Below, piece after piece: positions 12,112 to 19,403 of a stretch of 64,000 nucleotides of DNA (position 1 is the stretch's first letter; each line of letters opens with the position of its first letter). Location of the stretch: NCBI GenBank assembly GCA_964019425.1, contig OZ025793.1:1054001-1118000 (forward strand). The letters are read 5' to 3'. A program made the position numbers and the translations under genes. The notes beneath the pieces were generated by a model, which worked only from the letters and a program-made list of their open reading frames with translations, was not told the origin of the DNA and ran no database searches. The DNA is from Flectonema sp. DT1601 (Eukaryota).

Positions 12112-15100
12112 ATGATACCAATCGAATCTTTGGAAGAAAAATTACGAAAAGGTGATTGTGATGAGTTGAAGCCGATACTACAAAATGGGATAAAAGAGAG
12201 AATATTCAGAGAAGCGATTAAGAACGTGTACTTTACTGAATCTACTGAGAGTGGCTATGATATAAAACAACTACTACACATCGTAGTGAAGATACAATCA
12301 CCACAGCTAATTGAACTCATATTAGATAAGGCGGATGAGGAGGTGATTGACGAAACCACCTTGCTCCTGGCTGTTGAATATAATAATCACCTCGAACTCA
12401 TACTAAATAAACTATCCGACGATAAAAAATCACTCATAAAGGATACAATTTCAAGCATAGTTGAAAAAGAGATGAGTGCTGACGATCAGTTGATATTATT
12501 ATTTAAATATGTCACTTGGGAACATTTCAAACTAATTATACGAAAACAGAGAAACAATAAAGAAATAGCAGCATGGTCACTACTAGTGGCTAGAAGTGGT
12601 AACAATTCTTTAATGAATAACTGGCTTCAGAGTGATGTACCACCTGACTTAACAATCACCACCAAAGCTAACAAGTCAAATGTCTTACATGAAGCTTGTT
12701 CGTCAGGGTCAGATGAAATGGTAGAGTTGCTACTCAAGAAAATGGAAAAAGAACAAATAATTTCATTAAACTCGGAGGGGAAAACTCCGCTTCTAAATGC
12801 ATCAAAAAGTGGGATCGGTCATTTTACATTACATCAACTGTTCAGGTCATACAATTCTAATATCAAAAAATTTAAAAAGCTTGTCGAAGATAAAAATATC
12901 TCCTTGTATAATGATAATAAAAAACTGTTTGAGATGTCAGGTAAAAATTCAGAAATTTCAATATGGGTTTCTAATCACCGTTCTAAATCGTCATCCCCTG
13001 ACGTGTGCCAAGAAATAAAGAAATCGGAGAGTGACCCTTGTATGACTGCAGACACTACGTCTCATAATATTCCTTATGACAGTAAACCCACCGCGTTGGT
13101 CTCTTCGTGCTTTGATCAGAATGAACCAGACTGTAAATTATTTGAATGGAAAAAACTTAACGGAAGGGATCGTTACCAAAGTTTCATCAACACGCTATTG
13201 CTAGCAACAGTACGTTTATGGAATAAAATCAATTCATATGAACCAAAAGCACACGAAGATATCAACTCATACAAAGAGGCGTATCCTAATGAAGGTACAA
13301 ACCCAGCTAACCTCGCAGCATTATTTGGAAGTACTCCAGAAGATGCCTTGGAGATGTTTTTAGCTGTGTGGTGCTACACAACTGCTAGCTTTTACGAAGC
13401 ATCAGGCATAAGAAGAACCATGACAAATATTGCAGCAGGCGATGCAAGTGAAGAAGACCAACGCAGGTCAAGGTTTTTGCATCCTGTCATTTATCATTTG
13501 CGACAACTATTGCTTCGACTCCCTCGAGAGGATGGTGTCCGACGTAGAGGTGATAAGGCAGCGAAGTCAGAGAAGTATAATGCCGAAAGGTCGATAAGTT
13601 TTCCCTACTTCGTATCTACTTCGTCTAGCGTTGATATTGTTATGAATACATTCATGGAGGGATCGTATCGCGATGCTTGTTACGTTATCGTTATTGGATG
13701 TGGTGCTGACGTGGCACATTTCTCTAGCAATGAGAAAACAGAGAAGGAGGTCTTGTTTTGTCCTGATTTTAAGTTTACAGTACTGAAAAAGTGGAATTCT
13801 AGCTTGCTTAGACACTTTGGATGCACTCACGACGTGGTAGTTATTGTTCAAGATACTCCCCGAGAAAGAAAAGAAGAAATGGAACACATTCGAATAGCAC
13901 TCTCAGATATGATGCAATTCTTATTCTATAACTTTAAAAGTAGATATGTAGAACCTCGATTATGCAAGAATTTGAAAGAAATATCATTGGATGATCTTAT
14001 CAAGGGGTTGCAAAATGAAAAAGATATCCAACCAGTTGTGATACAGTCAGATGCTGGTGAGGGAAAAACAGCGGCTGTCATCGCTATTGCGAACAGACTT
14101 TTTACGAAAGGATACTTTTGTTTGTTTGTATCCATGGCAGCAATAGAAAATGCATTCGACAAACACGTCATTGATGATTACATAAATGAAAAATGTCTAA
14201 CTGATAAATGTACTGCAGAGCACCTAGTGAAACAATACAAACTTGTCGTAATCCTCGATTCCTTAGACGAGGGAACTGCTATTCCCGAATCAAGCGAAAT
14301 GCTGACCCTCCGTCAACTTAATCCAGACTACCTCGGAAACTCCAAAACTCAAATAATAATAACTTGTAGAACTGAATACTTGTCTCAGAGGCATCTCACA
14401 CCGAAGAGTCTTCTTGGTGATAATGCTGTGTCTTATCGCTTACTTCCTTTTAACGATGACCAAAAAGATGAATTTGAGAAGAAGATGGTGCGTGAGGCTA
14501 TTAAATTGGAGGACCCTTCACCGGATACTATATTGAATCATGATCCTTGTAAGGCTGTAAAAGAAACTGTGAACAGTTTACGAAGAAGAGGACTTTGGAA
14601 TGTTTTGTGCAATCCACAAGTATTATATATGGCAATTAAGGCTGGTACTACGTATAACAATACTTCCGATATATACGAGAACTATATTAACTACTACGTA
14701 GGCTCTCAATTAGACGAAGCCGAACGTGACGCGAAAAGAAAAGAAGAATCTAAAAGTGACGTACTTAAAAAAGAAGTATCTAAAAATGAAAAAGAGATAG
14801 CTGAGGATAAAGAAATAGCTAGGCGTAAAGACGTTTCGAGGATAAAGAACTCCATGATCCATTTAGCTATAAGAATGCTGAAGATGAATCGATGGGAAGG
14901 AGCGCTGTCGAATTACTTTAAAGATGAAGACAACTTACGGGAAGTTGTGAAGAGTGACTTAAAATATTCTCCAGTATTCTACGAAGAAGACGTAGTTCGA
15001 TTTCAGCATAAGACGCTGCCCGAATATTTAGTTGCGAGTTACATTGCCGGAAGCTCACCAGTCACTGATGGCATAGCCAACCTCCCTCTTTTGAAGGAGG

Positions 15101-17678: not shown

Positions 17679-19403
17679 ATGCCTCTGTGTAGTATTTGCA
17701 ACACACCTGCGCTTTCTGGGGTTTGTAACAGCTGTAGTAACACCCCAGCGTGTGGGAGATGCCGAACGCTACTCTCTTCCATTGAAATAAAGTGGAGAAC
17801 CGGTCTTTGTGATAACTGCTACACTAGTAAGCCTAGTCATCAACCACAGTGTGGATTATGTAACGCAAACTTAACACATAAAGAACAAGGATATCAAACT
17901 GGTTTATGCGACACCTGCCATGACAAGAAAACAGCAGCAAAACAACAGCAAATTCAACAACAGCTTACTGATAAAGTTAAGGGAAGACTAAGTACCACAT
18001 GTGATTCATGCCAAAGTGCATCACCAGATTCCATTAAAGCAAATGGTCTGTGTGATACCTGCCGATCTAATAAAGTAATGCAAGTAATCCCGACAATAAC
18101 AACTGTTAGAAATCTTTCATTAGAAGATGTGGCTTTTTGTATTTCCACAGGAACATTGCCGCCGGATGCGAAATTTCCTGAAACGGTGTACGGAAGAGTT
18201 CACTGCTATCGAAATGATACGACGGTTGACAAGATAAGTAAAGGAACTATATTACCAAATGATAGGCCGACTACTTTTGTTTTAGGCCCATCAGGTTTAG
18301 AAACTTGTGTAGGCAAGCGCTTTGACGCCCTGACAGCAGCAGGTTTGTCAAAGGAACATGTGGTCTCTCAGATTCAAAAAAAACGTATGTTTGGAATGTT
18401 ACTTTTTGAAACTCAACCAAACTTATGTCCCATTACTGCCGACTGGAGTGGACTATGGTCTCTTTGCAAACATCATTACCCAGCAGTGTGGAAACTGTTA
18501 CAGATTCACACTACGTACCTGTCAGCTGTTAGTTGGCAAGACTTGAGTGACGGTCGGTTTAAAGAAACAGTCACAGCCGCATTGAAGTGTGGCCTGTCAC
18601 CTTCTGCTGCATACTTGGCATCAAATAATACTGCTCTTGATGCAAGGATGTGGCTTGCCTATGAAATCTATTGTTCAGAGCTTTACACAGGCAACGGTTG
18701 GACTGTTGACGATAATGGTAAAAGACAGCTGAAAGAGTATTTCGTAAACAATGCTCCATTGTCAATGGTAAAGAACTGGAAGTGGGTTGAAATTCCTGTA
18801 TCGTTGTCCGAAGCAGCGACAGCACCTGCACCTCAAACATGGAGCATGCAGAAAAAGAATTGCGAACTCGTTGAGGTTCAGAGAGGTACGGCAGAGTTTA
18901 ATTCAGTAGTAGCACGCATGCATGAAACTTTATCTAAAACTGTATTGAAGATTGAGAGAGTTCAAAATGTTATGTTGTGGCAGAATTATTGTAATGAAAA
19001 AGAGCAGGTGTCACGTTGGAATGGAAAACCTGCACGCGAGCTTCGACTCTTTCATGGAACGTCTTCTGCGAGTCCTGATTGTATCTACGCTTCACAAACG
19101 GGTTTTGATATGAGGTTTTGTAGATCTGGTCTTTGGGGGATAGCTGTATACTTCGCTCAGAATGCAGCATATTCTGACTCTTACAGCTACCAGAATGGTC
19201 CTCACCGTCAATTCTTTCTCGCATCTGTCATAGTTGGAGATGCCTATCAATGCTCTACCGATGGATCACTGCGAATGCCTCCATTAAAGACAGGAACTAC
19301 TACTCGATATGATTCTGTAACTGGGAACACTGGAGGCAGTGACGTGTTTATGATTTACTCAAATGGAAGAGCTTACCCTGAATATTTAATAACATATCAG
19401 TAG
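17679..19403 (+). CDS. Zinc-finger protein with uncharacterised central domain and C-terminal PARP (mono-ART type) catalytic domain
   Basis: Four CxxC...(G)(L/V)CxxC units. PARP motifs: KIERVQN..LW, LFHGT (19053), GFD, GxAVYFA (19149), YSDSY, VIVG, YDSV, YPEYLITY. Confidence 0.9.
   Translation: MPLCSICNTPALSGVCNSCSNTPACGRCRTLLSSIEIKWRTGLCDNCYTSKPSHQPQCGLCNANLTHKEQGYQTGLCDTCHDKKTAAKQQQIQQQLTDKVKGRLSTTCDSCQSASPDSIKANGLCDTCRSNKVMQVIPTITTVRNLSLEDVAFCISTGTLPPDAKFPETVYGRVHCYRNDTTVDKISKGTILPNDRPTTFVLGPSGLETCVGKRFDALTAAGLSKEHVVSQIQKKRMFGMLLFETQPNLCPITADWSGLWSLCKHHYPAVWKLLQIHTTYLSAVSWQDLSDGRFKETVTAALKCGLSPSAAYLASNNTALDARMWLAYEIYCSELYTGNGWTVDDNGKRQLKEYFVNNAPLSMVKNWKWVEIPVSLSEAATAPAPQTWSMQKKNCELVEVQRGTAEFNSVVARMHETLSKTVLKIERVQNVMLWQNYCNEKEQVSRWNGKPARELRLFHGTSSASPDCIYASQTGFDMRFCRSGLWGIAVYFAQNAAYSDSYSYQNGPHRQFFLASVIVGDAYQCSTDGSLRMPPLKTGTTTRYDSVTGNTGGSDVFMIYSNGRAYPEYLITYQ

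Follow-up and report, generated by a model that had tools for sequence, protein, structure and literature searches.

Do two adjacent genes that both appear to encode NAD+-using domains make up one paired sensor and effector of cellular defence, as an original prediction from the DNA alone had proposed, or are they neighbours with separate roles? The genes lie on a 64,000-nucleotide (nt) stretch of Flectonema sp. DT1601 (contig OZ025793.1 of assembly GCA_964019425.1, positions 1,054,001 to 1,118,000), hereafter the window. Gene 1 (12112..17403, + strand) encodes a protein of 1763 amino acids (aa) and gene 2 (17679..19403, + strand) a protein of 574 aa. Our analysis favours two intact neighbours, probably independent of each other, in a cluster of genes that all lie on one strand; the host is likely a diplonemid protist. 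Gene 1 would be a switch of the nucleotide-binding leucine-rich-repeat receptor type (NLR-like), combining a NACHT NTPase and WD40 repeats with an ADP-ribosyltransferase (ART) domain, and gene 2 a mono-ADP-ribosylating PARP joined to a domain likely to cleave or transfer NAD+. Their named homologues come from diplonemids: that of gene 1 from Flectonema neradi, those of gene 2 from Diplonema japonicum and D. ambulator.

The product of gene 1 follows the tripartite order of STAND proteins (signal transduction ATPases with numerous domains), that is effector, NTPase and repeat sensor. Ankyrin repeats (12586..12837, + strand, aa 159-242; Pfam Ank_2 with 43.7 bits against a cut-off of 27.3), which are present too in the Flectonema protein P0012, precede an R-S-E type ART domain (13297..13857, + strand, approximately aa 396-582). 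Further along the same strand come a NACHT NTPase (14032..14493, aa 641-794; PF05729 with 28.7 bits against 26.7), pentapeptide repeats (15322..15477, aa 1071-1122, the Pfam match covering aa 1083-1120; PF00805 with 29.4 bits against 20.2) and a candidate sensor, a WD40 region of about 630 aa (15502..17400). The latter scored 59.4 bits with PF00400 and matched many beta-propeller models, its best-scoring Pfam stretches being aa 1241-1553; its length suggests that it likely forms two propellers. Between the NACHT and the pentapeptide repeats, the aligned segment 14509..15291 (+ strand, with the motif RFQHKTL at aa 963) probably comprises the helical and winged-helix elements of this module, judging by the usual anatomy of NACHT proteins. 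The Walker A motif reads SDAGEGKT (aa 646-653), its first Gly being replaced by Ser and, in Flectonema, by Ala, and the Walker B motif reads ILDSLDE (aa 714-720). The NACHT/STAND receptor with an enzymatic effector that had been read from the sequence was thus recovered, with PF05729 above its cut-off and the domains in the expected order.

The only homologue group found for gene 1 was one Flectonema transcript group (P0003-P0007, P0012 and P0013), 33% identical over aa 326-1703 and 45% identical in the NACHT. No bacterial homologues were found in our searches. Contigs of run X1, which is possibly the source sample itself, matched positions 11840-14270 with zero mismatches at a depth of 2, and one of them covers and supports the junction of the ankyrin, ART and NACHT segments of gene 1; gene 2 is not covered by X1.

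The ART domain of gene 1 yielded no Pfam match up to an E-value of 10, using two cuts of the domain, and no PDB sequence match up to an E-value of 1. Its Flectonema homologues, 38-42% identical over aa 396-582, did exceed the cut-off of the ART family PF01129 (22.3 bits): P0003, P0012 and P0013, all three belonging to one transcript group, pass it, the scores obtained being 26.5, 24.6 and 28.4 bits. The residues R479 (within R-G-D), S502-T-S504 and E544-K-E546 of gene 1 are kept in these 3 rows out of 3 as R479, S502-x-S504 and E544-x-E546. The R-S-E assignment of the original prediction therefore stands on the motifs and on the homologues, while the window domain itself lacks a Pfam match. 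Going by motif order, the Arg would fall on the first strand, S-x-S on the second and E-x-E ahead of the fifth. E-x-E suggests arginine specificity. ESM Atlas features linked the domain to ART clusters at 0.85, which we used as a lead only. The same motifs, R-G, S-x-S and E-x-E in the same order, are tabulated for the vertebrate ART1 and ART5 (PF01129; motif table of PMC7955679). Those enzymes differ in being secreted or glycosylphosphatidylinositol-anchored ectoenzymes, whereas the gene 1 domain sits in a large STAND protein of intracellular type.

Two other assignments were tried and rejected. As a strict animal or plant NLR, gene 1 failed on its WD40 models and on finding no leucine-rich repeat among the best 25 of 27 Pfam families. 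As a TeTIR/DUF4062 NADase (NAD+ glycohydrolase), it failed on a pre-NACHT domain without any Pfam match, whose homologues score as ART.

The TeTIR/DUF4062 proteins TEP1, NWD1 and NWD2 nonetheless resemble gene 1 in an NAD+-using enzyme placed directly before the NACHT, a C-terminal WD40 region and a proposed activation by oligomerisation, according to two preprints (bioRxiv 10.64898/2026.09.21.753143 and 10.64898/2026.05.01.722283). Gene 1 departs from them by its head, which is an R-S-E ART preceded by ankyrin repeats rather than a TIR-like NADase, by the pentapeptide repeats between NACHT and WD40, and by occurring in a euglenozoan protist. Two further groups, the metacaspase-headed NACHT-pentapeptide-WD40 proteins of cyanobacteria and the bacterial NLR-related defence proteins, share with gene 1 a NACHT that, together with pentapeptide and WD40 repeats, follows a swappable effector, which in gene 1 is an ART. 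PADLOC returned no match for gene 1 or gene 2. Literature searches combining NACHT or NLR with ART in protists or bacteria found no description of this architecture, and a search on diplonemids and NACHT returned nothing relevant. Judged by its architecture, gene 1 appears to be STAND receptor-like with an enzymatic head, an R-S-E ART variant of that theme, and an NLR-like role in immunity or cell death is a reasonable inference.

The seven Flectonema transcripts vary in the linker between ankyrin and ART, in the ART active-site loops and in one WD40 blade, and two of them terminate past the NACHT. This variation may reflect a mosaic or diversity of paralogues, or assembly chimaerism. At 14726-14790, a short tandem repeat codes for a Lys/Glu-rich insertion in gene 1, which the Flectonema protein does not have.

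Gene 2 starts with eight C-x-x-C pairs (17688..18062, + strand, aa 4-128), forming four likely zinc sites and matching no named zinc-finger family above cut-off, and ends with a PARP catalytic domain (18828..19400, + strand). The latter scored 55.9 bits with PF00644, against a cut-off of 26.7, and its best solved relatives in a PDB sequence search were PARP12 and PARP15 (E ~2e-24), in keeping with the PARP-type ART domain first proposed. Its triad, H459-Y491-V556, is without the catalytic Glu; V556 aligns with an Ile of PARP12 and a Leu of PARP15, and the domain is predicted to be a mono-ADP-ribosyltransferase. PARP12 and PARP15 are listed as mono-transferases in the triad table of PMC7955679. 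Gene 2 shares HGT, YFA and a hydrophobic third triad residue with PARP12, PARP15, PARP14 and PARP10, and differs from them by its Cys repeats and by a second, unrelated ART-like domain; PF00644 was the sole Pfam domain of gene 2 and of its two orthologues, with no macro, WWE or CCCH domain found.

These full-length orthologues, from D. japonicum (P0014) and D. ambulator (P0163), are 44-45% identical to gene 2; by segment, identity is 33-34% for the Cys repeats, 41-43% for the middle domain and 55% for the PARP domain. A literature search on Diplonema, PARP and ADP-ribosyl found nothing. As far as comparison of sequences can tell, the product of gene 2 has been conserved in diplonemids and carries two domains predicted to use NAD+, one of them from an unnamed family.

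This unnamed domain (18084..18812, + strand, aa 136-378) is predicted to adopt an ART fold with a large helical insertion, and carries R173 on strand 1, W256, R323 and the invariant G340 and E353. Its family comprises 163 library representatives. No library family matched it and it is absent from Pfam, NCBIfam and PHROGs; in particular, TNT (PF14021) gave no Pfam match in any of 115 family members. R173 is found in 105 of 115 rows and E353 in all 115, both residues lying on strands in a structure model with a predicted local distance difference test (pLDDT) of 92.3. When this model was ranked against 48,161 chains, chains that we class as ART-fold proteins took ranks 1 to 7 and 13 of the top 17, and in a second ranking they took ranks 1 to 4 among 7 rows. 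ART-fold NAD+ glycohydrolases and toxins, including SPN (3pnt), Tne2 (6b12), Rhs1-CT (6xtd), pertussis-like S1 and RES domains, are about 10% identical to the middle domain. It is distinguished from them by its helical insertion, the lack of S-x-S, and the fusion of its family to nicotinamidase in clusters of NAD genes rather than a position beside immunity proteins.

The genomic context of the family was analyzed from a sub-alignment of eight close relatives, leading to 28 loci in Candidate Phyla Radiation (CPR) bacteria, Melainabacteria, Bdellovibrionota, Gammaproteobacteria and archaea, plus two viral records (252,876 and 436,316 bases, both classed complete). Several of these 30 loci are closely related and do not represent 30 independent events. 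A nicotinamidase-like region, so labelled from the source name and from weak isochorismatase matches, lies within 6 kb in 10 loci and in the same open frame in 9 of the 10. All 10 also contain a PP2C and a kinase-like gene, and 9 a vWA-like gene (one weak Pfam match). Among the 30 loci we counted NrtR in 5, an NMNAT/NAD-kinase-like gene in 4, NADAR in 3, NAPRT in 2, and NAD synthase and Sir2 in 1 each; 17 are without any of these NAD genes. NrtR is an ADP-ribose-sensing repressor (section 3.8 of PMC9503650). The fusion to a nicotinamide-removing enzyme under NrtR points independently to an NAD+-splitting enzyme.

With both the fold ranking and this NAD-operon context in its favour, and no library family, the possible third ART-fold domain of the original prediction gained support, and a third NAD+-using domain at the locus is probably real. 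There is about an even chance that it is an NADase; a transferase is possible though less probable, and a non-catalytic binder of NAD or ADP-ribose is rather unlikely. The novelty of the family is not certain, as older comparative-genomics work on ART families, NAD-pathway components or Ter systems could mention it.

A recurrent bacterial operon was seen at L001-L007 and L013, mostly in CPR and predatory bacteria: NrtR, the ART-like domain fused to nicotinamidase, then vWA-like, PP2C and kinase genes, sometimes with an NMNAT/NAD kinase, NADAR or a second isochorismatase-family gene. No description of this operon was found in literature searches. Its vWA-PP2C-kinase trio resembles the TerY-P triad; PADLOC run on the family loci gave no TerY-P-like match. 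Both viral records encode the ART-like family, nicotinamidase, PP2C and a kinase, to which L029 (4331-12669) adds NAD synthase and NAPRT, and L030 (127-8860) vWA-like and major-vault-protein-like genes. These viral clusters possibly serve NAD+ rebuilding or counter-defence. In other members (P0048, P0063, P0065, P0074, P0106, P0111, P0115 and P0132) the middle domain occurs as tandem duplicates or fused to inositol monophosphatase, GlcNAc 2-epimerase, calcineurin-like phosphoesterase, PhyH dioxygenase or vWA-like domains.

Whether the two genes belong together was examined using the 22 open reading frames (ORFs) of the window that start with ATG and code for 100 aa or more. Genes 1 and 2 are each one uninterrupted frame on the + strand, confirming the co-orientation, the absence of introns and the 275-nt gap noted at first (17404..17678, with a T-rich tract about 75 nt upstream of the gene 2 start). 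All 22 ORFs are on the + strand as well, and the gap is the fifth shortest of 21; the shorter ones measure 214, 242, 249 and 264 nt, and the next two downstream of the pair are those of 242 and 249 nt. The orientation and spacing of the pair are thus ordinary. In codon fit, gene 1 ranks last among the 22 ORFs (0.033, against 0.053-0.131 for the others), and comparison with simulation gave a z of -5.7 for gene 1 and -1.0 for gene 2. This is compatible with gene 1 evolving faster, being expressed at a lower level or having arrived more recently beside gene 2, an older resident. The known range of gene 2 includes two Diplonema species and that of gene 1 Flectonema only, from searches of unequal sensitivity. 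Moreover, gene 1 needs no partner because it carries its own effector. Euglenozoan co-transcribed genes are described as functionally unrelated (PMC8061765), in agreement with the caveat, made together with the proposal of a module, that adjacency means little in this group. With ordinary spacing, differing codon usage and an effector within gene 1, the paired sensor/effector module was left unsupported.

What the proposal has in its favour are three NAD+-using domains in two adjacent genes amid unrelated housekeeping genes, and a precedent, since the NACHT-WD40 NADase TEP1 and the mono-ART PARP4 share the animal vault (bioRxiv 10.64898/2026.05.01.722283). By analogy, the NLR-like protein would guard or activate the zinc-finger-ART-PARP protein, or both would sit in one complex; in viral L030, the middle-domain family lies about 4 kb from the major-vault-protein gene. 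Gene 2 itself has no TROVE, vWA or vault-type domain in Pfam, and no locus carrying both genes was found, in searches that recovered neither gene. Besides the vault precedent, three observations weigh against our preferred explanation. A preprint (10.1101/2025.10.27.684775) reports that gene clustering is milder in diplonemids and that clusters of trypanosomatids are to some extent ordered by function, so that adjacency is weak evidence rather than none. The Z scores of the middle-domain fold ranking are low (4.8 or less). In the tree, the diplonemid middle domains form one long-stemmed clade for which no sister is supported; all organism-labelled loci fall in a group that does not include it, and the NAD-gene context therefore applies at the family level only. 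With these points included, we consider a joint defence module of either kind improbable. The same holds for its fullest form, in which a cell-autonomous diplonemid immune module, a protist counterpart of TEP1-PARP4, would pair an NLR-like arginine-ART sensor with a neighbouring mono-PARP/NADase protein to ADP-ribosylate the invader or collapse NAD+; the NADase would come from a family common to CPR bacteria, predatory bacteria, archaea and jumbo-size viruses.

The two genes could also have roles outside immunity, gene 1 being a real ART-NACHT switch for stress, life-stage change or endosymbiont control, and gene 2 acting, as other PARPs do, in DNA-damage or RNA-stress signalling. Gene 2 appears vertically conserved and its codon usage is normal, no trigger is known for several STAND proteins that have an enzymatic head, and an upstream neighbour (7422-9278) weakly resembles a Rad51 paralogue, under cut-off. 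Such roles fit less well with the divergence of gene 1, 33% identical to its only homologue found, with the variation of the Flectonema transcripts in linker, ART loops and WD40 blade, as is often seen in conflict genes if these are not assembly chimaeras, and with the very patchy distribution of the middle-domain family in bacteria (in one phylum, 301 genomes were sampled and 1 carried it, the centre itself). We judge them unlikely, if a little less so than a module. Finally, one or both of the non-PARP domains might lack catalytic activity or have a fold other than ART, in which case motifs and fold ranks would be coincidental. This is very unlikely given that homologues of the gene 1 domain score above the Pfam threshold for ART and retain R, S-x-S and E-x-E, that E353 is invariant in 115 of 115 rows, and that the nicotinamidase fusion recurs.

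Under our preferred explanation of two independent genes, a mechanism can be proposed from STAND biology. The WD40 region of gene 1 would keep the NACHT closed until a foreign or damage ligand leads to nucleotide exchange and oligomerisation. The clustered ART domains might then modify arginines on a target chosen by the ankyrin repeats, or deplete NAD+, and as a result the cell, or an invader within it, would be arrested or die. Gene 2 would act separately, its predicted mono-PARP being joined to the unnamed-family domain, which is likely to cleave or transfer NAD+. Diplonemids are protists that abound in the sea and harbour bacterial endosymbionts, and to our knowledge almost nothing is known of how free-living euglenozoans sense intracellular invaders. 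Gene 1 is a concrete candidate for such a sensor and adds a new effector and a new lineage to the STAND receptors whose heads consume NAD+. The middle-domain family, recurring with nicotinamidase, NrtR, vWA-like, PP2C and kinase genes, suggests an NAD+-linked system whether or not the protist pairing is real.

Around the pair, Pfam matches identified an eIF5-like gene on the upstream side; the downstream neighbours are a kelch gene and an aldo-keto reductase gene. The ORF at 7422-9278 has a long low-complexity N-terminus followed by a P-loop domain, and is a possible recombination-mediator paralogue. A 1901-aa ORF at 1390-7095 has no Pfam match; within it, at 3627-4018, a unit of 147 nt is repeated in tandem (2.8 copies). 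The segment 33276-36202 encodes two protein kinases, tandem paralogues that share 48% identity, and 45621-49460 a protein of receptor type, in which a domain resembling phosphate-binding proteins is combined with an adenylate/guanylate cyclase domain. Next to the latter, about 12 kb (49461-61339) are without a long ORF and T-rich on the + strand (AT skew to -0.22), and may represent long introns or a long untranslated region. Within this region, a short coiled-coil frame at 60456-60695, without a Pfam match, is in our estimation similar to the end of SSNA1/DIP13.

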